Assembly (NCBI GenBank): GCA_964427855.1
Contig: CAYRVH010000001.1
Span: 21,649 to 85,648, forward strand
Direction of reading: 5' to 3'
Source of the DNA: an uncultured Syntrophaceae bacterium
GTDB lineage: Bacteria > Desulfobacterota > Desulfomonilia > Desulfomonilales > Desulfomonilaceae
DNA length: 64,000 bases
Shown here: one piece after another, positions 4,297-22,795 of the stretch
Layout: each line of letters opens with the position of its first letter
How positions within the stretch are numbered: position 1 is the stretch's first letter
The notes under the pieces: generated by a model
Database searches by the model: none
What the model was told of the DNA's origin: nothing
The model's input: the letters and a program-made list of their open reading frames with translations, nothing else
Translations under genes and position numbers: made by a program

Positions 4297-4752
4297 TTAG
4301 TTTTCTGTCATGATAAAGTTGTCATACTCGATCTCGAATCTGAGTTTGTGCTTGGCCTCTTCTTGTGCCAAGGCCAGAAAGGTCTGCTCGAGCCCTTCAT
4401 CATCCGTAGAGGCCGCCAAGTCAGTGTACATCTTAAAAGCCTTCTTCTCCTTCTTCATGGCGAGTACAAGAGCCTTCTGATAATCCATGCCCGCTTCAGG
4501 CTCCACATCCACCAGATAGTCTGAGATCTTAAGGTCCAACACTTTTTTCTCGGACGATAGCAGCCTCTTGCCACCCTTCACGTCGAGGAGCTTGCGTTTA
4601 TGCCCCAACTCCTCTTGGGCAAAATCCCGGAAGATTTTGCTCATCCATGGTCTGTCCATACGATCAGCCAAATCTGTATAAAACTTATGCGCTTGTTCTT
4701 CCTGCCCTATGGCGTAATCCAAAACTTCGTCCACTGACGTCCATTGATTCAT
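4297..4752 (-). CDS. Ferritin-like diiron protein (rubrerythrin/erythrin family, no rubredoxin domain)
   Basis: Repeated E..E/ExxH motifs (GQEEQAHKFY, AQEELGHKRK, AQEEAKHKLRFE). GGAGG RBS. Confidence 0.75.
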   Translation of the reverse strand: MNQWTSVDEVLDYAIGQEEQAHKFYTDLADRMDRPWMSKIFRDFAQEELGHKRKLLDVKGGKRLLSSEKKVLDLKISDYLVDVEPEAGMDYQKALVLAMKKEKKAFKMYTDLAASTDDEGLEQTFLALAQEEAKHKLRFEIEYDNFIMTEN

Positions 4753-4941: not shown

Positions 4942-5454
4942 CTACGCGAATTTCTTCACCGCCTCAATGACTGCGTCATAATTCGGTTCGTCAGCTATTT
5001 CATTCACTATTTGCACATACCGTATTATCCCCGCCTGGTCAACGACAAACACAGCCCTTGCAAGAAGTCGCAAGTCCTTTAAGAGCACCCCGTACGATAA
5101 GCCAAAGGACGCGTCACGGTGATCCGACAGCGTTTGAACCCGAGTAATGCCCGCCGCGCCGCACCAGCGGGCCTGGGCGAAAGGCAAGTCCATACTTATA
5201 GTCAAGATCACCACGTTTTCTCCCAACTGCGACGCCTCTTCGTTGAAGCGTCTCGTGGACGTGTCACACACGGGGGTATCCAGAGACGGCACGCTCGAAA
5301 CTATGCATACCTTCCCTTTGAATGAAGAAAATTTCACGGGAGTCAAATCATTGGCAATTGCAGTGAAATCAGGCGCGGCGTCGCCGACTTTCACCTCTTG
5401 TCCCAAGAGCACCAAAGGATTTCCTTTCATGGTAACTATGCCAGCTCGTTCCAT
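4942..5454 (-). CDS. tpx: Thiol peroxidase
   Basis: 170 aa with the Tpx signature SVPSLDTPVCDTSTRRFNEEA. AGGAGG RBS upstream of ATG 5454. Confidence 0.9.
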   Translation of the reverse strand: MERAGIVTMKGNPLVLLGQEVKVGDAAPDFTAIANDLTPVKFSSFKGKVCIVSSVPSLDTPVCDTSTRRFNEEASQLGENVVILTISMDLPFAQARWCGAAGITRVQTLSDHRDASFGLSYGVLLKDLRLLARAVFVVDQAGIIRYVQIVNEIADEPNYDAVIEAVKKFA

Positions 5455-5466
5455 TTGTTCTACCTC

Positions 5467-6489
5467 CTAATACGATTCCTCTGACGCAAGATACGCCTCA
5501 GTCACTTTGTCGCGGAACATATGATACGCCCATGCTTGATAAATGATGACAATCGGGACAAAGATCAGGGCCACCACGAGCATGATCTTCAGCGTAAGAG
5601 GGCTTGATGCGGCATTAAAGGCGCTCAAGCTGAGCGAGGCATCCAGCCGCGAGGGGTAGAGGTTTGGATAAAGCCCCACAACGCCAAAGAGCACCGCAAA
5701 AACAATGGTGGCGCATGACGAAAACCATGCCTTCCACCATTCTTGCTTCCCGATATAAAACTTGATGCAAAGAAGAGCGAGCACTGCCAGCAACGGCACT
5801 ACGAACAGCAGGGGGCGCGTGAGATAGTTTCCGTAAAGCGGAGTGGCAAACCATGAGAAAACCAAGAAGACCACCGCCACAATAAGGACAAGCACCCACA
5901 ACCCGGACGCCGCTGCCCCTGCTCTTTGGTGCAAGGCTCCTTCTGACTTGATGGCGAGCCATAGGCTGCCATGCAGGAGAAACAGCGACACGAAGAGCAC
6001 CCCCCCGGCGATGCCATAAGGATTCAAAAGGGTGAACAAGTTGCCTTGAAACGTGTACTTGGCGTCAAAAGGAATGCCTTGAAAAATGTTGGCAAAAGCC
6101 ACGCCAAACAACAGCGCGGGGATGAAGCTCCCTACAAAAAGGCAGAAATCCCACACTTTTTTCCATCCGCCGCCCATGGCGCCTCGAAACTCGAAGGACA
6201 CGGCCCGTATAATCAAGGCAAACAAGATGATCAACAAAGGTGCATATAAGGTGCTAAACATGACCGCGTAAGCGGTGGGAAACGCCGCAAAGGTAACCCC
6301 CCCTGCAGTTATCAGCCATACCTCGTTGCCGTCCCAGAAAGGCCCCATGGCATTGTAAATCACGCGTCGATCGCGATCGGTGTGAGAAATGAAAGGCATA
6401 AGGGTGCCGAGTCCAAGATCAAAGCCGTCCAGCATAAAATAGATGGCCCACAGTAAGCCCCAGAGCAAAAACCATATTGTTTCTAACAT
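5467..6489 (-). CDS. cydB: Cytochrome bd oxidase subunit II
   Basis: MLETIWFLLWGLLWAIYFMLDGFDLGLG is a typical CydB N-terminus, and the protein is polytopic. ATG 6489 has AAAGGTGGG upstream. The track ORF begins at GTG 6501. Confidence 0.9.
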   Translation of the reverse strand: MLETIWFLLWGLLWAIYFMLDGFDLGLGTLMPFISHTDRDRRVIYNAMGPFWDGNEVWLITAGGVTFAAFPTAYAVMFSTLYAPLLIILFALIIRAVSFEFRGAMGGGWKKVWDFCLFVGSFIPALLFGVAFANIFQGIPFDAKYTFQGNLFTLLNPYGIAGGVLFVSLFLLHGSLWLAIKSEGALHQRAGAAASGLWVLVLIVAVVFLVFSWFATPLYGNYLTRPLLFVVPLLAVLALLCIKFYIGKQEWWKAWFSSCATIVFAVLFGVVGLYPNLYPSRLDASLSLSAFNAASSPLTLKIMLVVALIFVPIVIIYQAWAYHMFRDKVTEAYLASEESY

Positions 6490-6647
6490 CTTTTCGCCCA
6501 CCTTTCTTCCGATAAGTCGTCCCGGGCAAACCGGAGAATTTTGTCGCGTTTACTTGTGTGATGCATTCACGAGGTGACGCTCCAAGGTTCCGCCAACGTT
6601 GCGGCGTTGAGCAAAGCGCATGACAAACCAGTATCTGCTCTCTTGTC

Positions 6648-7952
6648 CTACGCCTCCACCGGTCCTTTGCGTGCGTGTTTGACCATGATGACAAACGCAG
6701 CCAACCCAAGGAGGGTGTAGAGCACAATGAAGGCGATGAGCGACATAGCGACTTGAGAACCCACCAAGGGAGAATGGCCGTCCGCCGTCTTCATCACGTT
6801 ATAGACCAGCCAAGGTTGTCTCCCCACCTCGGTGACGACCCAGCCAAGAAGACCTGCGAGATACGGTAGGGGGAGCGCATACATCATGATTTTCAAGTAA
6901 GCGGGGCTGGACTCCCACCGGTTCCATTTAATCACCCCGATGAGCGTAAGCAGGACGAACAAGAAACCGAGTCCCACCATGATGCGAAAGGAGGCGAATA
7001 CGAGGGTGACCGGCGGTCTATCTTCAGGCGGCCAGGCTTTGAGTCCTTTCACCTCCGCGTCCCAGTCTCCATACACTAATCGGCTAAGAAATTTGGGGAT
7101 TTTGAAAGCTTCCACGCTGTTGGTCTCCCGGGCTTCGTCGGGTATCAGCAGCAGGGCAAAAGGAGCGCCCTTTTGAGTTTCCCAGACCGACTCCACGGCA
7201 GCGAGCTTTGCTGGTTGAGCATGCGCCATCTCCCTGCCGTGAAGGTCTCCCACCAACACCTCCAGCACAGAAAAGACAAAAGCAAAGATCAGCCCAAGTC
7301 GAAACGACTTGGTAAAAAATGAAACTTTGTTCTTTCTTAGCAGATGGTATGCGCTAAAGCTCATCACGAAGAATCCGGCGACTATATAACCGGCAAATGT
7401 GGTATGGAAGAAAGTGAGAATTGCAAAAGGTTGCGAGATCACCGCCCAGAAGTCCGTAAGCTCCGCGCGGCCGTTCCTTATGGTGAATCCCACTGGATGC
7501 TGCATCCACGAATTGGCTACAAGGATCCAATAGGCCGATACATTGGAAGCAATGGCAACCAGCCATATACAGGCCGCGTGAAACTTTGGAGAGAGCCTCT
7601 TCCATCCGAAGGCCCATACCGCAACAAAGGTGGATTCGAGGAAAAAGGCCACCGTGGCCTCAATTGCGAGCAACGAACCGAATATGTCGCCCACATAACT
7701 AGAATAGCCTGACCAATTGGTGCCAAATTGAAACTCAAGGGTGATGCCTGTCACGACGCCCACGACAAAATTGATGAGAAAGATCTTCCCCCAAAATTTT
7801 GCCATGGATCTGTATTCTTCGTTGCCGGTTCTCACATAGATGGTTTCCATAATGGCAACCAGAATGGAAAGACCGAGAGTGAGCGGCACGAAAATGAAGT
7901 GGAAAAGGGTTGCGACTGCAAACTGAAGCCGCGACAACATGATGACATCCAT
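6648..7952 (-). CDS. cydA: Cytochrome bd oxidase subunit I
   Basis: MDVIMLSRLQFAVATLFHFIFVPLTLGL is a typical CydA start. GGGAGG RBS at about 7960-7966. The 39 extra N-terminal codons of the track ORF are unlikely to be translated. Confidence 0.9.
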   Translation of the reverse strand: MDVIMLSRLQFAVATLFHFIFVPLTLGLSILVAIMETIYVRTGNEEYRSMAKFWGKIFLINFVVGVVTGITLEFQFGTNWSGYSSYVGDIFGSLLAIEATVAFFLESTFVAVWAFGWKRLSPKFHAACIWLVAIASNVSAYWILVANSWMQHPVGFTIRNGRAELTDFWAVISQPFAILTFFHTTFAGYIVAGFFVMSFSAYHLLRKNKVSFFTKSFRLGLIFAFVFSVLEVLVGDLHGREMAHAQPAKLAAVESVWETQKGAPFALLLIPDEARETNSVEAFKIPKFLSRLVYGDWDAEVKGLKAWPPEDRPPVTLVFASFRIMVGLGFLFVLLTLIGVIKWNRWESSPAYLKIMMYALPLPYLAGLLGWVVTEVGRQPWLVYNVMKTADGHSPLVGSQVAMSLIAFIVLYTLLGLAAFVIMVKHARKGPVEA

Positions 7953-8043
7953 GACACTACCTCCCAAGTTGTTTGACGCTTGCCCTGCGACGCTGCTCAG
8001 AGGCGAGGCTCCGCAGGTTGTGGCAAGCCCGCAATGCACGTCG

Positions 8044-8787
8044 TTATTGTTGTGAACCAATATCTCCAAGCTTATCTATAGCGTTTTCAGCCGCATCCTT
8101 CATTTTCAACCTGATGATTTTTTCGGAATCGAATGTTTCGAACTCCGTTTCGTCGGCCAGCAAAGCCTTTAAGGCGGGTTTGGCGTCGGCCAGCCGTAGG
8201 TTTCCTATCGCCATCACCGCATGTCCTCGTACCGCAGGGTCTTTGGACTGAAGATATTTGGCGAGATGGGATCCCCAGCTGTGAAGCGCCTCTGGCCTTG
8301 CTTCCGAGAGTCGCGCCCACGCCCACAGCAAGCCGCGTTGCAGAGGCTCATGCTCCAAAAAATTACCCGCTTCGTCTGCATACGACCCGAGAATGGAGGC
8401 ATATTCCTTAGCCAGAAGCTCGCTTTGGGCCATAGCCTCTGCCATCACCTCTGGCGCGCCCCATCCGATGCCACCGGATTCGTCGTTAAGACTCCACATG
8501 AGTCGCCGCATGACGACCCGAGCCCCCTCGATGTCAACTTGAGCAAGGCGCGCCAGAACTGTTCCCATGGCCCTCACCGCGCGCCATTTGATTAAGGGAT
8601 CTTGATGACAGAGCAGGGAAAAGAGCGCATTGATCACTTGTGCCGCCGGCATGTTTAGTAAAACCGAGAGGCGTTCCTCAAAAGAACTTGTGTGAAGAAG
8701 ACCCAACAGTTCTTTTTTCCTCGACCTTGTCCCGACGTCACTCATTTTGCCCGCCTCCAGCGCAGTCTCGACCGCATTGCGTGTCAT
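8044..8787 (-). CDS. HEAT-repeat-like helical protein (function unknown), upstream of cydAB
   Basis: 247-aa all-helical repeat-like sequence (DPLIKWRAVRAMG..., DPAVRGHAVMAIGNL...). Alternative start at 8745 (GGAGG upstream). Confidence 0.6.
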   Translation of the reverse strand: MTRNAVETALEAGKMSDVGTRSRKKELLGLLHTSSFEERLSVLLNMPAAQVINALFSLLCHQDPLIKWRAVRAMGTVLARLAQVDIEGARVVMRRLMWSLNDESGGIGWGAPEVMAEAMAQSELLAKEYASILGSYADEAGNFLEHEPLQRGLLWAWARLSEARPEALHSWGSHLAKYLQSKDPAVRGHAVMAIGNLRLADAKPALKALLADETEFETFDSEKIIRLKMKDAAENAIDKLGDIGSQQ

Positions 8788-8994: not shown

Positions 8995-10200
8995 CTATGT
9001 CGTCTCTTCCTTCATGGCCTTGGCTATGTGTCTCCCCAGATCAACGCACAGTTTCAGACCGGCATGATCCGGGACAAACTGAAGGCTCACACCCGGGTGC
9101 ACGACTTTCACTTTCATTTCTTCAAGTGATTTCGTGAGGAGTTTCACAGACTCTCCGCTCCATCCGTATGATCCAAAGGCCGCCCCGATCTTTCCCAGGG
9201 GTCTCAGCCCTTTCATGTAACAGAGCAGATCAGCCATACGAGGGAGTATTCCATTATTAAGCGTTGGGGACCCTACTATGACCGCCTTGGCGTCCAAGAG
9301 CTCGGTGATCACGTCGCTGCGGTGATTCACTGCCAAATCCAGGAGCTTGATACTCACGCCGTGCTCCGCAAGCCCATCGGCTATGGCCTTGGCCATCATC
9401 TCGGTGCTGTGCCACATAGTGTCATAAATAATCAGCGCTTTTTGGCGAGAAACCTGCCTGCTCCACTGATCGTAGGCCTGGATAATTTGCAGAGGATTCT
9501 GACGCCATATGAGGCCATGGTCAGGCGCAATCATAGAGATGTTCAGGTCCATTTTTTGGACATCGGCAATCAATTTTTGGATCAAGGCTGAATACGGGAG
9601 TAAAATGTTTGCGTAATATTTCGCCGCATGGGCCATCAACTCAGACTGATCAACCTCATCGTTGAATCGCTCGCTCGTCGCCCAGTGCTGACCGAACGCA
9701 TCGCTGGAAATCAGGAGTCCGTCCTCTTTGATATACGAGAACATGCTGTCCGGCCAATGGAGCATTCGCGTCTCGATAAATTGTACGGAGCGTTGTCCGA
9801 GACTGATTTCCTGACCCGTCTCCACCACTTCATAAGGCCAGTCTTCCCGGTGATAATGATCGAGAAGGGCCTTTTTGCCCCTGGAACTGCAAAATATTTT
9901 TTCTGGCTGAATCAGGTCCACGATCTCAGACACAGCCCCAGAATGATCTGGTTCCACATGATTAACGACGAGATAATCGATTTTTTTGGGGTCAATGACT
10001 TTATGGAGGTTATGGATCAGGTCCATTTTGAAGGGTTTCTTGACCGTGTCAAAGAGGGTTACCTTCTCGTCCAGCACGAGGAAGGAGTTGTAGGTGGTGC
10101 CTTTGTATGTTGAATAGCCGTGAAAATCTCTGACCGTCCAATCCACCGCTCCAACCCAGTTAATGCCTTTTTTTATTTCAGTAATGGTCCGCAATGTCAT
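8995..10200 (-). CDS. roo: A-type flavodiiron protein (rubredoxin:oxygen oxidoreductase / FprA)
   Basis: Metallo-beta-lactamase-like diiron domain (VVNHVEPDHSG) plus C-terminal flavodoxin domain (KALIIYDTMWHSTEMMA...). GGAGG directly upstream of ATG 10200. Confidence 0.9.
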   Translation of the reverse strand: MTLRTITEIKKGINWVGAVDWTVRDFHGYSTYKGTTYNSFLVLDEKVTLFDTVKKPFKMDLIHNLHKVIDPKKIDYLVVNHVEPDHSGAVSEIVDLIQPEKIFCSSRGKKALLDHYHREDWPYEVVETGQEISLGQRSVQFIETRMLHWPDSMFSYIKEDGLLISSDAFGQHWATSERFNDEVDQSELMAHAAKYYANILLPYSALIQKLIADVQKMDLNISMIAPDHGLIWRQNPLQIIQAYDQWSRQVSRQKALIIYDTMWHSTEMMAKAIADGLAEHGVSIKLLDLAVNHRSDVITELLDAKAVIVGSPTLNNGILPRMADLLCYMKGLRPLGKIGAAFGSYGWSGESVKLLTKSLEEMKVKVVHPGVSLQFVPDHAGLKLCVDLGRHIAKAMKEETT

Positions 10201-10352
10201 CCTCCAGCACAAGTGTGACCTTTGACATCCAGTACATTCTCATCGAACAAGCGACTCCCGTTGCCTCGGGTGGCGCTCTCCAGGAAAAGAATCGTCATTT
10301 CCTCGAGAGCGCGTACGCCGAATTCCTCGATTAAGACAAGGACGGGATGCAC
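10197..10352 (-). CDS. Possible 51-aa small protein between rubredoxin and roo
   Basis: GTG 10352 (AAGAGG 9 nt upstream)...TGA overlapping the roo ATG as ATGA (10197-10200). Peptide (M)HPVLVLIEEFGVRALEEMTILFLESATRGNGSRLFDENVLDVKGHTCAGG. No family recognised. Confidence 0.25.
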   Translation of the reverse strand: MHPVLVLIEEFGVRALEEMTILFLESATRGNGSRLFDENVLDVKGHTCAGG

Positions 10353-10641: not shown

Positions 10642-11082
10642 CTATTTACCGGTTATTTTTTTTCCTATTTCTCGGCCGTAATCTTGGGCCATCTGCAAAC
10701 CGCCCTGCAAAGCAGCCGTCTTGAGCCTCAATGGGCTGCCCACCATATCCATCTTGAAGATGTTCTGCATGGTATCATAAATGCGGTCCACCGCCTCGCC
10801 GCTCCAACCGAAAGCCCCGAATGAGCCGCCGACCTTCCCTTCAAGATTCGCTTTAGCCGCCAAAAACAACATGGTCTTCATTGTCTGTATCATGTCGCCA
10901 TGATACGTGGCGGATCCGAAGACATAGGCATCATAGCCTTCGAGGTCGGCTTGCGAAGTGATTGCCGTGGCCTTGACGACTTTTGCTTCCGCGCCCGTGA
11001 ATCGTATCCCTTCTGCAATGAGCTCTGCAATATTTTCGGTTTGGCCTGATCTTGAAGCGTGTACCACCAGCGCTTTCGCCAT
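10642..11082 (-). CDS. Flavodoxin-domain protein
   Basis: MAKALVVHASRSGQTENIAELIAEG...GGSFGAFGWSGEA. AGGAGG RBS before ATG 11082. Confidence 0.8.
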   Translation of the reverse strand: MAKALVVHASRSGQTENIAELIAEGIRFTGAEAKVVKATAITSQADLEGYDAYVFGSATYHGDMIQTMKTMLFLAAKANLEGKVGGSFGAFGWSGEAVDRIYDTMQNIFKMDMVGSPLRLKTAALQGGLQMAQDYGREIGKKITGK

Positions 11083-11225
11083 GTTGCCTCCTTGATCTTT
11101 CATTTACATGGTTATGGGGTGGAAGCGATTGCCCTGACAGACTCTTGGGTCGTTTGACCCGCTCCCGGCCCTTTTTAATAGGGGCTCACCGCCCCAGGAC
11201 TGTGTTCCTCACAAATTGGATCATG

Positions 11226-11810
11226 TCATGGCCCGTCACGAACAATCCGTGAACCAAGCTCCCGGGCCTCCTGAAGGTACTCCAGGCGCTGTGACACCTC
11301 GCCTTTTCCCTCCACCGACCTGATCTGGATGCCTCCCTTGTACGCTTTGCCGACGGCGTCGTAAAAATACCGGGCGACGAGCTGCACGCCGTCAAACAAG
11401 TTTTTCCCCTTTGTGGCTCCGACGCAGATCAAATAACCACCACCTTTGTAATCCCCCGCGCCCGGAATCCCTGATTCCTTCTGCAACCTGCGCCGACAAT
11501 ACAGGGCTTGGCAGCGATCAATGAGGGCTTTTGCTTGGGCAGGGATGCTGTAAAAAAAGATGGGCGACGCCAGTATAATGACCTCCGAGTCCAATAGCTT
11601 TGGATAGACAAGACTCATGTCGTCTTCCACCACACAGACTCCGGTTTCGTCGCATCCGCCGCATTCGATGCATCCCTGAATGTTGAGGTCGCAAACCCTC
11701 AACGTAGATACGGTCGCTCCGGCCTTCTCGGCGGCGTCCAGGGCTTCTTGCAACAGAATGTCTGAGTTACCGCCCTTGCGAGGGCTTCCAAAGATTCCTA
11801 AGATATTCAT
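11226..11810 (-). CDS. Iron-sulfur flavoprotein (Isf-like NADPH-dependent FMN reductase family)
   Basis: MNILGIFGSPRKGGNS flavodoxin-like start and compact Cys motif CIECGGCDETGVC (Cx2Cx2Cx5C), as in Isf proteins. Confidence 0.75.
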   Translation of the reverse strand: MNILGIFGSPRKGGNSDILLQEALDAAEKAGATVSTLRVCDLNIQGCIECGGCDETGVCVVEDDMSLVYPKLLDSEVIILASPIFFYSIPAQAKALIDRCQALYCRRRLQKESGIPGAGDYKGGGYLICVGATKGKNLFDGVQLVARYFYDAVGKAYKGGIQIRSVEGKGEVSQRLEYLQEARELGSRIVRDGP

Positions 11811-11852
11811 GTCATTTCCCGATAGCTTGGCAATTTCCGTCTGGCGCAACCG

Positions 11853-12200
11853 TTAGAAGGTTATGACCAGGTATCCTTCGTCTATATATTTCGCCAGACT
11901 GGGATGCCCTGACATGTCGTCGCCAAGCGGCAACCGCTCGGCCGCTACCTTATCCAATACGTTCATCTTGGCAGAGCATGCCTTGCAGACGGCGCTGATC
12001 AAACCGGCCTCCCTCACTTTTTTGAAGAGGCTCGCAAGCGGACTCGCTCCGGAGGCAAGGTCAGGCACCAGCGCAGTCGCCGCACCTTCAATGACCAGCT
12101 TCACGTCGTAGCCGCGACTTGTCATATCCAGGGCGTTCAAAAGCACATGCACAAAACAAACAGGATCCCCGTTGAAAGCGACGAGCACAGTTTTTTTCAT
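11853..12200 (-). CDS. Small DsrE/DsrF-like-fold protein (tentative)
   Basis: 115 aa MKKTVLVAFNGDPVCFVHVLLNALDM...CKACSAKM...GYLVITF. GGAG RBS. Family assignment is from memory and tentative. Confidence 0.55.
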   Translation of the reverse strand: MKKTVLVAFNGDPVCFVHVLLNALDMTSRGYDVKLVIEGAATALVPDLASGASPLASLFKKVREAGLISAVCKACSAKMNVLDKVAAERLPLGDDMSGHPSLAKYIDEGYLVITF

Positions 12201-12235
12201 CGCTGATTCTCCATCGTCATCGCGCAACTATGACT

Positions 12236-12406
12236 TCATCCCAACCGAGGATCTTGGCCCGTCATTCCGCATTCCGGGATGTAGCAGGTGACGTTGACAA
12301 ATTGGCACTTCTCCTTGCACTGGGCGCACGTTTCCGGCGGGGCATCTGATGCGGGCGCCTCAAAAGTATATCCGCATTTGGGACATTTCCATGTAATGTT
12401 TTCCAT
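12236..12406 (-). CDS. Unlisted 56-aa Cys-rich rubredoxin-like/zinc-ribbon protein
   Basis: Own translation: [56 protein letters not shown]. Two CxxC knuckles plus 3 more Cys. AAGGAG RBS 7-8 nt upstream. Below the 60-aa cut-off of the ORF track. Confidence 0.6.
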
Positions 12407-12445: not shown

Positions 12446-13987
12446 TCAATGAGCTCTGTTGGACTTCTGCAACCGCAGGCAGCCAATCTTGTCCAGGATA
12501 TCTCTTATGTTTTTGGACATGAACCATCGACCGTTCGCAAAAACACCGTAATCCGCTCCCATCATCGCCGAAGCGAAACGGGTCGAGTTTGCATAAAAAA
12601 GCCACTGTTCAACCCATAGCCGTTCGACAGCCTCGTCAAAAGGATTGGATGGATCGAGGAGCTTCTCTTTCCAGGCGGTTTCAAGGAGTTTTGTGGCGGC
12701 GAGGGTCATCTTGTCCGTGGTGGAGAGCGAAGCTTCAAACCTGACCCAGTGGCCGTCAACCCAGTTCTGCGCGTGACAGCCTTTACACACTTTCTGGAGC
12801 GACGCCTTTCTGGCTTCCATTTCTTCCGTTGAAATGAGAAATTCCCCTGCAAGGCTGCCGTCCAAACTCGTAGGCAGGGGCTGTCCGTCCTTATTCCTTA
12901 TAATTGAGGTGTCTGGCGACTTAGGGTGAGGATGGGAATAAATGAGTCCAAATATGCGCCACGGGAGTCGGTCGTTCATTTGATGGGTTCTTGTGGCTAT
13001 GACTTCTCCATCTGCACTGGTTAAGAGACTGGCATGACACGTCGCGCACGTCGGCCCAGAGATATCCCTGCCCAAAACCCACGGCACGCTATCCATCTTC
13101 CAATCCTTACACATCGATGCGTGAAGGTTACCGTGCTTTGACACCGAATACGCTTGATACGCCGGAACATCCGGTCCTTTGTGGCATTGCGAGCAGGTGT
13201 AGGGTTTGCGAGCCATGCTTATGGAGAATTCGTGCGTCGTGTGGCACGAGGCGCAGGAGCCCTTACTGCCATCGGGATTTAGCCTCCCAACTCCCTGGTT
13301 TGGCCAGCCTTTGATAGTGACGAATTCCATATCGCCAAAACTAGTATCTCGAGTGTTTTTCCCCAGCACTTCCAGCGCAGTTCCGTGGCAGGAATAGCAG
13401 GAATCCGACATGGTCAAGTCGTCAGGGGGAGCGATAGCGATCTTGTCATCTTTTGCCACAGATTGGACTCCATTGACCGACGTCATCATGGTTCCATAAA
13501 GCTGATTTTTCGCGAGATTCCCGTGAGCGTGGGACATGATGTTCTTTTCGTATTGAACCGCCTCCTGGGGGTGGCATGCCCGACAATCGTGGGGCGTCAC
13601 AGTAAGGTGGACTTTTTCGTCATTATGGTCAAACACGTCTTGGTGGGCCTCGGCATTCATGCGATGGCATTCGGCGCACCCCACCACTGACGAGGCAAGC
13701 GCGTCGGGTACTCGCTCGGCGGACACCCTTCTTTCCAAGACTTTTTTCTTCAAGGCTTCCCCAGGGGTTATCGAGGAATGCCTACTCCTTTTCCAATTCT
13801 CCACTATGGCCGGCGTTGCCACGGAATGACAATCGATGCATTGTTGACTCGCCTCGCTGATTTTGTCTGCTGCCAGCGCCAAATCACCATTCAAACAGAG
13901 CATGCCTATTCCAGCGGTGTACAACAACACGGCTATCTTACAATTAATCCAGGTTCGCGGCTGTCTGCGGTGTTGCGGCGCGGTCAT
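12446..13987 (-). CDS. Exported octahaem c-type cytochrome (hydroxylamine-oxidoreductase-like family)
   Basis: Eight CxxCH motifs (CIDCH, CAECH, CRACH, CYSCH, CASCH, CSQCH, CATCH, CKGCH) and an N-terminal hydrophobic signal/anchor. The start overlaps the upstream stop (ATGA 13984-13987). Confidence 0.85.
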   Translation of the reverse strand: MTAPQHRRQPRTWINCKIAVLLYTAGIGMLCLNGDLALAADKISEASQQCIDCHSVATPAIVENWKRSRHSSITPGEALKKKVLERRVSAERVPDALASSVVGCAECHRMNAEAHQDVFDHNDEKVHLTVTPHDCRACHPQEAVQYEKNIMSHAHGNLAKNQLYGTMMTSVNGVQSVAKDDKIAIAPPDDLTMSDSCYSCHGTALEVLGKNTRDTSFGDMEFVTIKGWPNQGVGRLNPDGSKGSCASCHTTHEFSISMARKPYTCSQCHKGPDVPAYQAYSVSKHGNLHASMCKDWKMDSVPWVLGRDISGPTCATCHASLLTSADGEVIATRTHQMNDRLPWRIFGLIYSHPHPKSPDTSIIRNKDGQPLPTSLDGSLAGEFLISTEEMEARKASLQKVCKGCHAQNWVDGHWVRFEASLSTTDKMTLAATKLLETAWKEKLLDPSNPFDEAVERLWVEQWLFYANSTRFASAMMGADYGVFANGRWFMSKNIRDILDKIGCLRLQKSNRAH

Positions 13988-14580
13988 TTTTCAATGTTCT
14001 CCAATTCGCGGATCAGCGTTTCTAGACGGGGCATGTCGTTGATGTCGTGCACGTCTATATAGCGAAGTTTCCCTTGCTTATCGACGACGAAAAGGGCTCT
14101 TTCCGAAGTACCATTGCTGCGGAGCACGCCGTACTTTTCAGCCACCGCGCCGTGAGGCCAAAAATCCGACAACACCGGGAACCATAATTCCCCCATTTGA
14201 TTGGTCCACGCATACAGGGTAGGGATGTTGTCAACGCTGATTCCTAAGACGATGGCGTCATAACGGTCAAATAAGTCTTTGGCAATGTTATAGCCGGGCC
14301 ACTGCTGAGAACAGACCGGCGTCCAAGCTGCCGGCACAAATGACAAGACCACATTCTTCTTGCCCCGGAATTGACCCAGAGAAACCAGGCCGCCGTGAAT
14401 ACCTGGCAGCGAAAAATCAGGCGCCAGGTCGCCGGGTTTCAGAGATGTGGCGCTGTCAATAGGTTTCAGTTGTCCAGGATTAAACACAGTGCGTACTTCT
14501 GAGACCGCTGTTTGAACAGCTACAAGCACGAGCATTGTCGCTATGGCGAGGAACATGATAAATTTACTCGTATGAATCAT
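13984..14580 (-). CDS. Exported peroxiredoxin (AhpC/TSA-redoxin family)
   Basis: Signal peptide MIHTSKFIMFLAIATMLVLVAVQTAVSE and universal Prx motif PxxxTxxC (PAAWTPVC). Confidence 0.8.
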   Translation of the reverse strand: MIHTSKFIMFLAIATMLVLVAVQTAVSEVRTVFNPGQLKPIDSATSLKPGDLAPDFSLPGIHGGLVSLGQFRGKKNVVLSFVPAAWTPVCSQQWPGYNIAKDLFDRYDAIVLGISVDNIPTLYAWTNQMGELWFPVLSDFWPHGAVAEKYGVLRSNGTSERALFVVDKQGKLRYIDVHDINDMPRLETLIRELENIEK

Positions 14581-14585
14581 AGGCG

Positions 14586-15164
14586 CTACTTCCCCTTGAC
14601 GGCTTTCACCACTGCATCGACATAAAGCTGAGGTTCTTTCATTTGCCCTACATGCTTGAATAACACCGACAGACGCCCTTGTTCGTCAACTCGAACCAAT
14701 ATAAAAGTAGGAGTTCTAATTTCCTCGGAATAGGCTTTTCGAAACGTCATCTTGTCGTCTGGGACAAGTGGAAATGGTACCTGGTATTTTTTGCGGTACA
14801 CGTCAACCTCGAAGGGCGTGTTGCCTGCTCCTATGCCGAGCATTCGCACGGTGGAGGCGAGTTCTGGTTTTTCGTTCAAGAGCGAGAAGACGCTGTTTAC
14901 AACCGGGGCCTCCGCCTGACAGATGGGGCAGTACATGCTAAATAATTCCAGCAAGATAAACTTACCTTTGAGGTCGACGAGTCGAAACAGCGGCTTGTTG
15001 TTCAGTCCGAGATAGAAGCGATCCTGTGGACTATCTGGAGCTTGAAATTCCAAGGAGCTTAATATCGCTGTATTTACTCCAGATTCCGACGCATACCCCA
15101 TGGATGAGCCCATAACGACGGACATCAGGGTCGCGACAAGTGTCAAGTTTAGACTGTACTTCAT
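14586..15164 (-). CDS. Exported TlpA/ResA-like thiol:disulfide oxidoreductase
   Basis: Signal peptide MKYSLNLTLVATLMSVVMGSSMGYASE and CxxC active site (FSMYCPICQAE). AGGTGG RBS before ATG 15164. The track ORF starts at GTG 15173. Confidence 0.75.
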   Translation of the reverse strand: MKYSLNLTLVATLMSVVMGSSMGYASESGVNTAILSSLEFQAPDSPQDRFYLGLNNKPLFRLVDLKGKFILLELFSMYCPICQAEAPVVNSVFSLLNEKPELASTVRMLGIGAGNTPFEVDVYRKKYQVPFPLVPDDKMTFRKAYSEEIRTPTFILVRVDEQGRLSVLFKHVGQMKEPQLYVDAVVKAVKGK

Positions 15165-15280
15165 CTGAACCACCTATCCCATAGGGAGAAGCGCGCTGGC
15201 GTTGTCAAATGCTCACCATTAAGTCTGTCGGTGACCGCATCGTCAGACGGCCACTTGGCGGCCATCCCCCGACGTGTTGA

Positions 15281-15475
15281 TCAGGCCTGACCAGGAATCG
15301 CAACTGGTTTGAAAAACCGCTTGCCAGCCCCACAGATAGGGCATTTCCAGTCGTCGGGCAGATCTTCGAACGCTGTACGCTTAGCAATCTTGCCTTTTCT
15401 ATCCCCCCGTAAGGGGTCATAGATGTATCCACAGTTAACGGTCTGACATTGATACATGGTCGCGCTGATCGTCAT
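15281..15475 (-). CDS. Type-2 rubredoxin with Cx4C first knuckle
   Basis: ...[19 protein letters not shown]...[12 protein letters not shown]. The first metal knuckle is C-QTVN-C rather than CxxC. GAAAGGGA lies upstream of ATG 15475. Confidence 0.85.
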
Positions 15476-15600: not shown

Positions 15601-15972
15601 TCAGGCCTTCCATAGGCCGTGCAAATTGCAATATTCCCTTGCGGTAAACTCACCCTCAACAGGAAAAAAGGCCTCTGGAGCCTGTCCAGGCTCCAAAAAC
15701 TGTCTGTAAGCTTTTCCTCCCTGTATGATCTCGATCCATTCGATGTAGTGCTTCTCCTCCATGGGGTGAGCCACGCTCCCTACTTTCACCTTGAAGCCGC
15801 CGTCAGCCTTTTCTTTCACTGGAACGTGTTTCTCACGGGCTGCGTCAACGGTATTCTCAACGAACAGCTTCATGGGTTGACCACAACATACCAGCGCTCC
15901 CTTGCCTGCATGGAGCATCTCCACGATGTTACCGCAGACATCGCACTTATAGACTTGCAATTTCTCGGTCAT
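15601..15972 (-). CDS. dfx: Desulfoferrodoxin (2Fe superoxide reductase)
   Basis: [34 protein letters not shown] (desulforedoxin-like centre I) plus the neelaredoxin domain. AGGAGG RBS. Confidence 0.92.
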
Positions 15973-16109: not shown

Positions 16110-16685
16110 TTACCAGTTCTCCGCAAGAATTTCGAAATATCCTTTCGGATGCGCGCACGATGGACAGGATTCCGGCGCCTCCAAACCCTCATGCAGGTAT
16201 CCGCAGTTGATACAGCGCCATACCACCGGACTGTCTTTGCGAAAGACTTTACCTGATTCCACGTTCTTCAGAAGTCCAAGATAGCGTTTTTCATGCTGCT
16301 TCTCAGCATTGCTTACCGCCTCCCAAATCTTCGCAGCCGTTTCAAACCCCTCTTGACGCGCTATCTTCGCAAATCCAGGATATAATTCGGTCCATTCATA
16401 ATGCTCACCGGCCGCCGCAGCCTTGAGATTTTCTGCTGTTCCTGCAATCACACCCGCCGGAAAGCCAGCCTCAATAATCAAGTCGCCGCCTTCGAGCTGC
16501 GAAAAGAATCTCTTCGCGTGCTCCTTTTCCTGGTTGGCAGTCTCTTCAAAGATGCCGGCTATCTGAATAAGCCCTTCCTTACGAGCCTTCGACGCGAAAT
16601 ACGTGTATCGATTACGCGCCTGCGACTCGCCTGCAAATGATTTTAGTAGATTTTTCTCAGTCTCTGATCCTTTTATGCTTGCCAT
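16110..16685 (-). CDS. rbr: Rubrerythrin
   Basis: [31 protein letters not shown]...EKEHAKRF...EKQHEKRY plus C-terminal rubredoxin knuckles (WRCINCGY...CPSCAHP). GGAGGG RBS before ATG 16685. Confidence 0.92.
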
Positions 16686-16696
16686 GATACCCTCCT

Positions 16697-17122
16697 TTAA
16701 TGATGGTCTATGGTGTTCTCCCTGACCGCCTCTCGGCGGCAACGAGGGCAGATTCCTACAAACTCGAGGCGATGCCATAAGATCTCGTAATCACTGGCGG
16801 ATGAAATAGCCTCATTGATGGCGCCAAGAGGCGCCACGTGAACGTCATCTACGCGTCCACACACCATACAACGCACGTGATAGTGGTTTTCTGTGATGCC
16901 ATCGAATCTCTTCTGCTTTCCGGCCATTTCGAGTTTCTGAATCAAGCCGGATTCGGAAAGGAGTTCCAGATTTCGATACACGGTCCCCAGGCTAATTTTA
17001 GGCAGTTTCTTCCGGACGCGCTCATAGACCTCGATGGCCGTGGGGTGCGTTCTGAGCGATCGCAACTCGTCAAGGATGACCTTGCGTTGTTTTGTGGTTC
17101 GCAGCGTTTTGAGATGTTCCAT
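16697..17122 (-). CDS. perR: Fur-family peroxide-responsive regulator (PerR-like)
   Basis: [20 protein letters not shown]...HPTAIEVYE...[11 protein letters not shown]...[12 protein letters not shown]...CPRC. Sits 11 nt upstream of rbr. Confidence 0.85.
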
Positions 17123-17153
17123 GTTTGTTTCTGTATTGGTAACTATTACTGAT

Positions 17154-17182
17154 AAGTTAACGCACCCTTGCGCGCCTGTCAA
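17154..17182 (-). promoter_or_regulatory. Candidate sigma70 promoter of perR-rbr (TTGACA-17-TAACTT) with adjacent AT-rich operator-like sequence
   Basis: rc of 17177-17182 is TTGACA. A 17-nt spacer follows, and rc of 17154-17159 is TAACTT. GTTAACTTATCAGTAATAGTTACC overlaps the -10/TSS. Confidence 0.4.
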
Positions 17183-17296
17183 GACTCCCGTGAGCGGCTC
17201 ATAAAAAAACAATGCGAGGAAGCCTTTTATCCAAATATTCTTAAGAGTTAATTACAAATTCAAAGACGCTGCCGTCGTATTGAGCATGGAGAGACA

Positions 17297-20800: not shown

Positions 20801-20986
20801 TCCGACCCTCGGAACATTTTTGTTTTCAAAAGCATAAAATTCCAGTGCTCATTGTTGAGTAAAAATAGCAAGACGCGCGCGGGTTTTGTGTACCCGCACG
20901 GTATGAAAACCACAGAGCCGGTAAAGGTGCATGGCTGGACGATGCATGTTGCCGAAGCCCTTCATTCAAAGATTTTTGGAGGTAAT

Positions 20987-21445
20987 ATGAAACAGAGAAT
21001 TTTTCAGAAAGTCACCTTAGCTCTCGTCGTTTTTTGTTGCGTATTCACAATAGACGCCGTGGGGATAGCAGCCGCTGAGCCCAAGATAAATTTGGATGTG
21101 CTGTTGGCCCAACGTGTACCCATTTTGCTCGAATTTGGGAAAGGTTGGTGCATCCCCTGCAAATACATGAAACCGATCCTCGATGACATGGCCAACCTCT
21201 ACAAGGGCAAGGCCATTGTGTTGGCAGTGGACATGGATGTAAACCGAGATTTGGTCCGTAAATTCAATATTCGGATCATGCCCACGCAGGTATTTCTGCT
21301 GCCTAATGGCAATGAATTTTTTAGGAATGAAGGTACGTTGGAACGAGAGCATATTGCCCAAGTATTCGCCAAGATGGGGCTGCCTACGCCTCCTCCGCTG
21401 GCCGGAAGAGCGCCTGGCGCGGTTACTCAGACGCCGGTCCGCTGA
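20987..21445 (+). CDS. Exported thioredoxin-domain protein (WCIPC)
   Basis: MKQRIFQKVTLALVVFCCVFTIDAVGIAAA signal, then LLEFGKGWCIPCKYMKPIL. GGAGG RBS before ATG 20987. Confidence 0.8.
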   Translation: MKQRIFQKVTLALVVFCCVFTIDAVGIAAAEPKINLDVLLAQRVPILLEFGKGWCIPCKYMKPILDDMANLYKGKAIVLAVDMDVNRDLVRKFNIRIMPTQVFLLPNGNEFFRNEGTLEREHIAQVFAKMGLPTPPPLAGRAPGAVTQTPVR

Positions 21446-21522: not shown

Positions 21523-22233
21523 ATGGAATCGATGTTTGCCATGGTCGAGCAACTGGTGTCCTCTGGATCCATTTGGCTTGCCGCCTCCGGTTCGTTTGTG
21601 GGGGGCGCGCTGACCGCCATGAATCCGTGTGTCATCGTGATGGTTCCTTTGCTCATCGGATTTATCGGTGGTATTGACGAGGAAATGAGCGCAGGGAGGG
21701 CGTTTCTTTTCACGCTTGTGTTCATCCTGGGGTTTAGCATCGAGTTGGCCTTACTTTTCTCTGTGGGACTCGCGGCGGCGCCCTTTCTTCAGTCAGAGTA
21801 CATGGTGTACGTGGTTGCCGGCATCTGCGTTCTCCTGGGTCTCCATTTTATGGGCCTCGTTCACATTCCGTTGCCCATATCCCAAGATATGCTCCCCCGG
21901 TACACCGGCTTCTTGGGCGCGGGAATATTTGGATTCCTTTTCGGATTGGTCTCCCTCCCGTGCACCGGTCCGGCGCTCCTACTTATCGTGAGCATAATCC
22001 CCCTCAAAGGGCCGCTTTACGGAGGGATGATGATGTTATTTTATGGGATTGGTCACAGCCTACTTATCCTGGCAGTAGGCACGTCTGCAGGGGCTGCAAA
22101 GCGTCTGATTGGGTCGCGCAGAACTCACACGCTGAATAAGGTGGTCAAGGTGGCAGCCGGGGCTTTATTGGCAGGCGTTGGCGTGTACATCGGCGTCGGG
22201 GCGTTGCTCCCGAATCTTGGCATAGGCATATAA
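21523..22233 (+). CDS. ccdA: Cytochrome c biogenesis/thiol-disulfide transporter CcdA (DsbD core family)
   Basis: Six-TM protein with the two conserved Cys in PC contexts (MNPCVIVMVP, SLPCTGPAL). AAGGAG RBS. Confidence 0.85.
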   Translation: MESMFAMVEQLVSSGSIWLAASGSFVGGALTAMNPCVIVMVPLLIGFIGGIDEEMSAGRAFLFTLVFILGFSIELALLFSVGLAAAPFLQSEYMVYVVAGICVLLGLHFMGLVHIPLPISQDMLPRYTGFLGAGIFGFLFGLVSLPCTGPALLLIVSIIPLKGPLYGGMMMLFYGIGHSLLILAVGTSAGAAKRLIGSRRTHTLNKVVKVAAGALLAGVGVYIGVGALLPNLGIGI

Positions 22234-22312: not shown

Positions 22313-22795
22313 ATGGATCACTCTCGTAAAATATACATACTCTTGATCTGCCGGCTTTTTATTGGGGTCTTGTTTGTAGCTGCAAGCATCCATAAGATCG
22401 TGGATCCGGCGGAATTTGCGGTGTCTGTGAGAAATTACATGATCGTCCCTTCGTCTTGGAGCAACCTCATAGCCTTGACGCTCCCGTGGGTGGAGCTCCT
22501 CGCCGGAGCGCTGTTGATTATCGGCATCCAGACAAAGCCTGCCGCTTTGTTGACGACTCTGATGCTGGCTGTATTCCTGGGCGCCGTGATCTATGCGTAT
22601 GCGATAGGCCTCGATATAGACTGCGGTTGTTTCAGCTCGAGCAGCTCTTCTGAAGGCAGGGTTGGCGTGTATCACATCGTGCGCGACGCGGTATTGCTCC
22701 TCATTTCCGCGGCGGTGTTGTTCCTTGATCTCGGTAAAAACAGTGTGGTAAATTTTGTTATGGCCCGGCGTGAGGTTCGGTCTCGAACCGCATGA
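22313..22795 (+). CDS. MauE/DoxX-family membrane protein
   Basis: Four predicted TM helices and a CGCF motif (LDIDCGCFSSS), typical of MauE-like proteins. Confidence 0.75.
   Translation: MDHSRKIYILLICRLFIGVLFVAASIHKIVDPAEFAVSVRNYMIVPSSWSNLIALTLPWVELLAGALLIIGIQTKPAALLTTLMLAVFLGAVIYAYAIGLDIDCGCFSSSSSSEGRVGVYHIVRDAVLLLISAAVLFLDLGKNSVVNFVMARREVRSRTA

Follow-up and report, generated by a model that had tools for sequence, protein, structure and literature searches.

Three genes for redox proteins with predicted export

The DNA analysed here, referred to as the window, is a stretch of 64,000 nucleotides from contig CAYRVH010000001.1 of an uncultured Syntrophaceae bacterium, an anaerobic Desulfomonile-like host whose genome is 89% complete. 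Three consecutive genes on the minus strand, which we call the triad, encode a TlpA/ResA-like exported protein of the thioredoxin fold (14586..15173, 195 aa), an AhpE-like, 1-Cys exported peroxiredoxin (Prx; 13984..14580, 198 aa), and an octahaem cytochrome c of the hydroxylamine oxidoreductase (HAO) family with an N-terminal signal or anchor (12446..13987, 513 aa). The cytochrome groups with IhOCC, the octahaem cytochrome of Ignicoccus hospitalis, and the triad lies inside a large oxygen-stress cluster, a position suggesting that this clade of cytochromes acts in stress defence, a role not described so far.

The three genes are tightly packed. Direct reading of the sequence confirmed a gap of 5 nt between the genes for the TlpA-like protein and Prx ('aagTAGcgcctATG') and an ATGA overlap at 13984-13987 between those for Prx and the cytochrome ('gaaaaATGAcc'), as the original prediction had stated. 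The motifs that it had listed were also found. The TlpA-like protein contains CPIC, together with a Thr-Pro in 'RTPTF', and matches Pfam Redoxin (PF08534; 32.8 bits, cut-off 26.6). In Prx, the PxxxTxxC motif (PAAWTPVC) is joined by a conserved Arg within SERALFVVD and by a strong match to Pfam AhpC-TSA (PF00578; 112 bits, cut-off 26), and the whole protein has one Cys and no CxxC. The translated open reading frame (ORF) of the cytochrome has eight CxxCH haem motifs (CIDCH, CAECH, CRACH, CYSCH, CASCH, CSQCH, CATCH and CKGCH) and matches Pfam Multi-haem_cyto (PF13447; 58.9 bits, cut-off 21.9).

All three N-termini combine a positive n-region, a hydrophobic h-region and an AxA-like cleavage site, with Kyte-Doolittle maxima of 1.8-2.95 over 15 residues. 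The features of the signal peptide are kept in 13 Prx orthologues and in most of 13 TlpA orthologues. The signal or anchor sequences that had been claimed for each protein are thus borne out, and all three proteins are predicted to be exported via Sec signal peptides or anchors. A scan for promoters and terminators inside the triad revealed nothing decisive.

The seven best matches of Prx in the PDB were all Mycobacterium tuberculosis AhpE (best E=1.9e-25). Its orthologues, too, have the full set of Pro, Thr, Cys and Arg at the active site and a single Cys in the mature part, and additional Cys residues are confined to the signal peptide. Judged by sequence, Prx is a 1-Cys member of the AhpE subfamily without a resolving Cys. 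It shares an 'LSDFWPHGAV' block with M. tuberculosis AhpE (Rv2238c), which is also a 1-Cys enzyme. However, AhpE is cytoplasmic and recycled by mycothiol/mycoredoxin, whereas the window Prx has an N-terminal export extension of ~45 residues and a CxxC protein as its partner. For the TlpA-like protein, the best PDB match was Bacillus subtilis ResA (E=1.5e-7). Its scores against the NCBIfam equivalogs for ResA (NF002854; 46.2 bits, cut-off 170) and TlpA (NF047696; 15.8 bits, cut-off 230) stay below the cut-offs, suggesting a related but distinct family. A CP[IVYHF]C motif is kept in its orthologues.

The best PDB match of the cytochrome was IhOCC (4QO5; E=4e-105, or 5e-144 with a family profile), with about 47% identity over the aligned parts. 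Nitrosomonas europaea HAO and Kuenenia HOX, HAOr and HDH were weaker matches (1e-11 to 1e-17; HAO at about 4e-17). The score against the hydrazine dehydrogenase equivalog (NCBIfam HDH, NF052343) was 54.5 bits with a cut-off of 900, and an hhalign comparison of the cytochrome family with the HAO of ammonia-oxidizing bacteria (AOB) gave probabilities of 99.7-99.9. A maximum-likelihood tree was built from 58 sequences, comprising 50%-identity representatives from a search of 1.8 billion proteins, close relatives, a second HAO paralogue of the genome and AOB HAO; IhOCC itself was not in the tree and was represented by P0124, a sequence with an IhOCC-like C-terminus. The cytochrome fell into a clade with the IhOCC-like representatives with 100/100 support, apart from a large clade with a distal Asp-His dyad and from AOB HAO, which formed a separate clade on a very long branch. 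The proposed profile and phylogenetic placement thus assigns the cytochrome to the IhOCC clade and not to the oxidative HAOs. Its earlier description as HAO/epsilon-Hao-like holds at the family level (PF13447, eight CxxCH motifs, hhalign) and needs to be narrowed to the IhOCC clade, which is distinct from the Asp-His clade with its NrfH-like partners.

The second HAO-family gene of the genome lies on another contig (C58; L081:1154-2539, minus). Its product of 461 aa is 27% identical to the window cytochrome and has the distal Asp-His dyad of the clade to which it belongs. It is followed by genes for two possible partners, a tetrahaem protein similar to NrfH and an FeS protein with a Tat signal (515-1147 and 1-735), and is probably a respiratory-type enzyme.

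In order to locate the cross-link site of P460-type enzymes, NeHAO-like genes were drawn from metagenomes, with a fragment of N. europaea HAO (NeHAO) from the PDB search as query. The cross-linking Tyr467 of NeHAO was located in '...HVNPGGWT[Y]TEGWGP...'. A MAFFT alignment with 54 diverse family members equates NeHAO W465-T466-Y467 with Y480-G481-V482 of the window cytochrome. The column under Tyr467 often holds His in other family members, in keeping with a paper in which His is given for the key site of reductive HAOs (PMC12758564). Tyr480 of the window cytochrome occupies a family-wide aromatic position (Trp465 in NeHAO, Trp491 in IhOCC). The check for the cross-linking Tyr, suggested earlier, gives Val482 in the best alignment; the loop is divergent, and it is only provisionally, with residual doubt, that we regard the cytochrome as lacking a Tyr-haem cross-link. 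Two PDB sequence searches for the cross-link Tyr, one with a C-terminal profile and one with an HAOr peptide, did not align to HAO, and an AlphaFold2 model from a 21-sequence alignment was too poor (mean pLDDT 58.5) to be used for the cross-link loop.

The distal dyad of NeHAO, Asp267/His268, corresponds to Asp273-Val274 in the window cytochrome. Asp-Val is also present in IhOCC and in 88/88 close relatives with a readable motif, and Asp-His in at least 27 more distant representatives. In our own reading of the hhalign alignment, the position of HAO Tyr334 is occupied by Phe346. By these residues, the distal pocket is more apolar than that of any characterised N-oxide-converting HAO.

IhOCC (Igni_0955; Parey et al. 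2016, cited via PMC9250108 and PMC4429474) thus resembles the window cytochrome. Both have eight haems, an anchor or signal at the N-terminus, a distal Asp-Val, a Phe in place of HAO Tyr334 and, apparently, no P460. The IhOCC protein is archaeal, whereas the window cytochrome is bacterial, has Tyr instead of Trp at position 480 and is encoded in a defence island against reactive oxygen species (ROS). Epsilon-Hao and HAOr (Kustc0458, PDB 6H5L) (Haase et al. 2017, PMC8042395) have the HAO fold without the cross-linking Tyr and are expected to be reductases of nitrite, NH2OH or NO. However, HAOr and the sampled Asp-His clade keep Asp-His, whereas the window cytochrome carries Asp-Val and lacks a redox partner gene of its own. 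The oxidative HAO and HDH enzymes (N. europaea HAO, 1FGJ; Kuenenia HOX/HDH) have the octahaem architecture, and the region of haems 5-7 can be aligned (E about 1e-17). In contrast to them, the window cytochrome lacks the cross-link Tyr in the best alignment, lacks the distal His and belongs to a separate clade.

Conservation of the genes and of their neighbourhoods

We surveyed the distribution of the genes in 301 genomes that had been drawn evenly from the phylum. A Prx orthologue (52-68% identity) was found in 69 genomes, and in 61 of these a TlpA-like gene was located immediately 5' on the same strand (adjacency was counted by hand from coordinate tables). The gap from the TlpA-like gene to that for Prx has a median of 12 nt in 29 related loci, and it is also short where the pair follows the cytochrome gene, and thus in both gene orders. 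The TlpA-like and Prx genes form a tight, conserved two-gene unit, which may be a variant of the ScsB-TlpA-PprX envelope peroxide pathway. A 1-Cys Prx requires an external resolving thiol, and the adjacent exported CxxC protein is the obvious candidate.

Experiments in Caulobacter crescentus have established that the exported peroxiredoxin PprX is reduced by TlpA, and TlpA by ScsB, in whose place DsbD can serve (Cho et al. 2012, PMC3322552). Both systems combine an exported Prx with the PxxxTxxC motif and Arg with an exported protein of TlpA type, which in the window is the proposed reductant. In Caulobacter, a membrane transporter of the DsbD superfamily feeds TlpA, whereas CcdA and not ScsB was found in the genome of the window. 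PprX is of the PrxQ/BCP type with a resolving Cys, in contrast to the AhpE-like, 1-Cys Prx described here. Further differences are the adjacent and tightly spaced partner gene, the strictly anaerobic host and the location of the pair in a PerR island. Roughly one in four of the Desulfobacterota genomes sampled has the adjacent pair of exported AhpE-like Prx and TlpA-like protein, which would extend the envelope peroxide-reduction pathway to strict anaerobes and to another Prx subfamily.

The link between Prx and the cytochrome is looser. Among the 301 genomes, the cytochrome was found in 79 and both proteins in 28, leaving 41 genomes with Prx alone and 51 with the cytochrome alone. Of the 28 genomes with both, 12 have the two genes side by side. 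Six of these cases belong to the window's own family and show the order TlpA-Prx-cytochrome; the other six, from three other families, show the order cytochrome-TlpA-Prx. We also inspected the 80 best cytochrome loci of species-representative genomes, a set biased to close relatives. About 30 of them (Desulfomonilaceae, Syntrophales-type and similar metagenome-assembled genomes, MAGs) contain the whole island in the same order, and 4 have the order cytochrome-TlpA-Prx. In 29 related loci of the same order, the median distance from the Prx gene to the cytochrome gene is 49 nt (range about -1 to 171), with an overlap or a gap within 10 nt in no more than 2 of them. The ATGA overlap is local to the window.

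Adjacency in 12 of 28 genomes and in two gene orders indicates that the linkage is recurrent, re-formed or rearranged, yet facultative, and that Prx and the cytochrome are presumably co-regulated modules rather than an obligate pair. A survey of gene neighbourhoods for the triad had been proposed as a check. The triad does recur, in about 30 of the best 80 loci, but it is not obligatory. The notion of a Prx functionally fused to an HAO-type cytochrome is not supported by these numbers.

In the window, the triad is part of an island of genes on a single strand with the order PerR-Rbr-Dfx-Rd-[TlpA-Prx-OCC]-DsrE-Isf-Fld-Rd-FDP-HEAT-CydAB-Tpx (Rbr, rubrerythrin; Dfx, desulfoferrodoxin; Rd, rubredoxin; OCC, octahaem cytochrome; Fld, flavodoxin; FDP, flavodiiron protein). 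Similar neighbours recur at other loci. Fifty cytochrome loci had flanks of 3 kb or more on either side (full-flank loci). In 44 of them, one or more of the window's ROS genes have a homologue. Dfx is encoded in 38 of these 50 loci (29 upstream and 9 downstream of the cytochrome), and a Fur-family gene heads the cluster in 30, as it does in the window. In loci of the Syntrophobacterales type, a gene for a cytoplasmic Tpx lies immediately 5' of the cytochrome gene and dfx immediately 3' of it. Apparent matches to a distant Prx 5' of cytochrome homologues in other lineages turned out to be cytoplasmic Tpx and were discarded as orthologues of the exported Prx.

As a control, evenly sampled genomes were examined. 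ROS neighbours were present in 10 of 20 IhOCC-clade loci, compared with 2 of 20 Asp-His-clade loci, and in 6 of 16 IhOCC-clade loci outside the window's own family. In two further loci lacking other ROS neighbours, a ferritin gene lies immediately 5' of the cytochrome gene (L197:7521-8264, minus; L202:5454-5969, plus). NrfH-like tetrahaem and FeS partners occurred in 7 of the 20 Asp-His-clade loci. Homologues of the NrfH-like and FeS genes of contig C58 were found neither in the 20 evenly sampled IhOCC-clade loci nor among the examined neighbours of the window cytochrome. IhOCC-clade cytochromes thus recurrently adjoin dfx, rbr, perR, FDP, tpx or ferritin genes. At one locus of a Desulfobacteraceae MAG (L047, 140-1655), three genes precede the cytochrome gene, and on inspection they appear to encode an erythrin-like protein, a c-type cytochrome of 132 aa and a zinc-finger thioredoxin.

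Literature searches revealed, within the searchable part, no link of HAO-like cytochromes or the IhOCC clade to clusters of PerR, rubrerythrin, superoxide reductase, Dfx or FDP genes. The original prediction had regarded the whole arrangement as uncharacterised. For the cytochrome in a ROS cluster this agrees with our searches, but an exported Prx with TlpA is already known from Caulobacter. The cytochrome adds a new member to the IhOCC clade, and what is new about this clade is its association with ROS-defence genes. For IhOCC, we know of a solved structure and of in-vitro activities, and of no physiological role. Genome papers annotate such genes as hao and assign them to the N cycle (PMC10116758), and IhOCC-clade 'hao' genes of sulfate reducers and syntrophs are routinely counted as N-cycle potential. 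Such reconstructions would need correcting if the stress-defence role is true.

Proposed role of the triad and alternative explanations

Starting from the observed gene anatomy, family and clade membership and neighbourhood conservation, we infer that the triad may be the periplasmic arm of a PerR-type defence island against oxygen, ROS and reactive nitrogen species, with two co-expressed but mechanistically independent modules. We consider this reading reasonably probable; export, electron donors, substrates and PerR control are its inferred parts. If it is true, anaerobes would have a periplasmic branch of oxidative-stress defence that could be tested in cultivable relatives.

In the first module, the exported AhpE-like Prx would reduce H2O2, organic peroxide or peroxynitrite and be converted to the sulfenate (Cys-SOH), which the TlpA-like protein would resolve with its CPIC motif by a dithiol mechanism. 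CcdA would then re-reduce the TlpA-like protein across the membrane with electrons from cytoplasmic thioredoxin. The CcdA gene (21523-22233, plus) lies outside the conserved cluster, next to a gene for an exported thioredoxin (20852-21445, plus; CIPC motif, Pfam Thioredoxin). The two are 6 kb from the triad on the opposite strand. In at least one relative, CcdA and the cluster are on different contigs, and relatives showed no conservation of the linkage, which was therefore dropped as evidence that CcdA feeds the TlpA-like protein and Prx. However, a tblastn search found no other gene of CcdA/DsbD type in the genome (ScsB/DsbD were not searched with their own profile), which makes CcdA, by elimination, the probable importer of reducing power for the envelope. 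The suggested feeding of the pair by CcdA remains plausible on this ground, but not on that of gene position.

Directly 3' of the CcdA gene lies a gene for a membrane protein of the MauE/DoxX family (22313-22795, plus), followed by genes for small Cys-rich proteins, which together may form a further envelope thiol-redox module.

In the second module, the IhOCC-clade cytochrome, anchored in the membrane or secreted, would act as a reductase, as is expected for an enzyme without a Tyr-haem cross-link. HAOs free of the cross-link are reductases and reduce nitrite, NH2OH and NO in vitro (PMC8042395). Low-potential periplasmic electrons would come from the cytochrome c3 pool or a hydrogenase. Cytochromes of the c3 type are encoded in the genome, and IhOCC could be reduced by the native hydrogenase (PMC4429474). 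The five-coordinate haem 4 would reduce nitrite, hydroxylamine or NO, as IhOCC and other HAOs free of the cross-link do in vitro, and possibly H2O2 or O2. There is a precedent in Wolinella succinogenes, where NrfA is reported to mediate the response to stress from nitrite, NO, hydroxylamine and H2O2 (Kern et al. 2011, cited in PMC6682613). NrfA, too, is a periplasmic multihaem reductase of the same superfamily. It differs from the window cytochrome in that it is pentahaem, has a Lys-ligated haem and an NrfH partner and is primarily respiratory, whereas the window cytochrome is octahaem and has no NrfH-like partner among the examined neighbours.

The outline of this reading, a periplasmic defence against peroxide and nitrogen oxides, was one of two in the original prediction. 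It is supported by the TlpA-Prx adjacency in 61 of 69 genomes, the precedent of PprX and the island of PerR, Rbr, Dfx and FDP genes, but the fusion of Prx with the cytochrome that it involved is not. It is tempting to go further, and we do so tentatively, with clearly less confidence: IhOCC-clade cytochromes in general could be periplasmic stress-defence reductases of anaerobes rather than N-cycle enzymes. They would scavenge NO, nitrite and hydroxylamine (perhaps also H2O2 or O2), be fed by c3 or hydrogenase and be controlled by PerR together with dfx, rbr and FDP. In organisms of the Desulfomonile type, an exported AhpE-like Prx and the cytochrome would act as successive steps that convert peroxynitrite via nitrite to ammonium outside the cytoplasm.

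Several points weigh against the proposed two-module defence. The cross-link assignment comes from a sequence alignment of a divergent loop. In a register without gaps, Tyr480 would fall on Tyr467, and the C-terminal loop was not confidently aligned when the family was compared with AOB HAO by hhalign. The Asp-Val/Phe346 pocket is devoid of the His and Tyr of known N-oxide-converting HAOs, so that the chemistry could differ from that of relatives. CcdA is named as donor solely because no other candidate was found in a genome that is 89% complete. Half of the evenly sampled IhOCC-clade loci had no ROS neighbour by the queries used. Finally, the neighbourhood counts stem from related, non-independent genomes and are descriptive counts rather than tests.

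Among the alternatives, a functional coupling of the two modules has to be considered. Prx would turn periplasmic peroxynitrite into nitrite, and the octahaem enzyme would reduce the nitrite (as well as NO and NH2OH) to ammonium. M. tuberculosis AhpE does react with peroxynitrite (PMC8113037, Table 6), and IhOCC is cited as a nitrite reductase (PMC9250108). The triad occurs in two gene orders and at least four families, and the Prx and cytochrome genes overlap in the window. However, their adjacency in just 12 of 28 genomes, the frequent occurrence of each without the other and the poor conservation of their tight spacing make this sequential route unlikely.

That the 20 evenly sampled IhOCC-clade loci yielded no NrfH or quinol-dehydrogenase partner, in contrast to its presence at the C58 paralogue, weighs against another explanation: the cytochrome could be an ordinary enzyme of N metabolism, for nitrite or hydroxylamine ammonification in respiration or assimilation, and its position in the island incidental. 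The hao annotation in genome papers (PMC10116758), the activity of relatives on N-oxides in vitro and the 10 of 20 evenly sampled loci without ROS neighbours would fit. Yet 38 of 50 loci encode Dfx on one side of the cytochrome or the other, which for a gene in single copy greatly exceeds chance, and the examined neighbours of the window cytochrome include no nap, nar or nrf gene. An incidental position therefore appears improbable to us.

For the first module, sulfide could be the main reductant of Prx, leaving the TlpA-like protein to serve another envelope client. H2S reduces the AhpE sulfenate fast enough for sustained catalysis (PMC8113037), and the host, judging from its relatives, probably belongs to a sulfide-producing group. 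The near-obligate adjacency of the TlpA-like and Prx genes (61/69) and their median spacing of 12 nt speak for a protein as partner instead, and we think that recycling mainly by sulfide is quite unlikely.

It is more doubtful still that the cytochrome is an oxidative enzyme of the P460 type with Tyr480 cross-linked to haem 4 of the neighbouring subunit. Tyr480 is conserved to at least 90% in the close family, the inter-helix loop that holds it is also that of NeHAO Tyr467, the gapless register also matches Ile+14 and Asp+16, and a separate His-to-Tyr transition inside Desulfobacterota has been described (PMC12758564). Nevertheless, the 54-member alignment pairs Tyr480 with Trp465 and Val482 with Tyr467 of NeHAO. 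The 47% identical, structurally solved IhOCC has Trp at the position of Tyr480 and no P460 (PMC9250108). One close relative has His at this position, and the distal His268, required in oxidative HAOs, is replaced by Val.

The other reading of the original prediction, that both proteins of the thioredoxin fold are dedicated to reducing the CxxCH motifs of the apocytochrome so that the octahaem protein can mature, can be rejected with near certainty, even though ResA, an apocytochrome reductase of System II, is the best solved relative of the TlpA-like protein and the genome uses System II (ResB on contig C41; no CcmE found), because Prx lacks a CxxC and its only Cys is that of an intact peroxidatic motif, the TlpA-like protein scores far under the NCBIfam ResA and TlpA cut-offs, the TlpA-Prx pair occurs without the cytochrome in 41 genomes and the cytochrome without the pair in 51, and the genome encodes a separate exported thioredoxin next to CcdA and a separate System II gene, ResB.

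The surrounding oxygen-stress island

All genes of the island are located on the minus strand. Its first gene (16697..17212; Pfam FUR, 110.9 bits) encodes a Fur-family, PerR-like regulator, the start of which is probably the ATG at 17122. The assignment to PerR rather than Fur or Zur follows from the gene context, and PerR is presumed to control the island. An inverted repeat (GTTAACT-N10-AGTTACC, 17138-17161) lies about 15 nt 5' of this ATG, overlaps a putative -10 element and is a possible operator for the autoregulation of PerR.

Between the regulator and the triad lie the genes for rubrerythrin (16110..16778; Pfam Rubrerythrin, 104 bits, and RUBY_RBDX), the superoxide reductase Dfx (15601..15972; Pfam Desulfoferrod_N and Desulfoferrodox) and a rubredoxin-like ORF of 64 aa (15281..15475), in which the first knuckle is C-x4-C (CQTVNC) and the second CPIC. 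In related clusters, homologues of this ORF likewise separate dfx from the TlpA-like gene.

On the other side of the triad, the interval between the cytochrome and DsrE-like genes contains a Cys-rich, zinc-ribbon or rubredoxin-like ORF of 56 aa (12236..12406; WKCPKCGY...CAQC), with a weak match to the rubredoxin-like domain of rubrerythrin (RUBY_RBDX, E=9e-5) under the Pfam cut-off. The gene for the DsrE-like protein (11853..12227; Pfam DsrE, 31.9 bits) is present in many, not all, related clusters. It is followed by genes for an Isf-like FMN reductase of the iron-sulfur flavoprotein type (11226..11849; Pfam FMN_red, 76 bits) with the Cys cluster CIECGGCDETGVC, a flavodoxin (10642..11103; Pfam Flavodoxin families) and an FDP, an O2/NO reductase of the Roo/NorV type (8995..10212; Pfam ODP and Flavodoxin_1). 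The remaining genes, assigned by Pfam matches, encode a HEAT-repeat protein (8044-8787), CydA (6648-8069), CydB (5467-6501), Tpx (4942-5454) and an erythrin-like protein (4297-4752).

HEAT-repeat proteins of about 230-250 aa recur in related clusters (L043 5062-5742, L073 5263-5955, L185-L200). In the window, the HEAT-repeat gene lies in the interval between the FDP and CydA genes, and in some other lineages it is found immediately 5' of the gene for the octahaem cytochrome.

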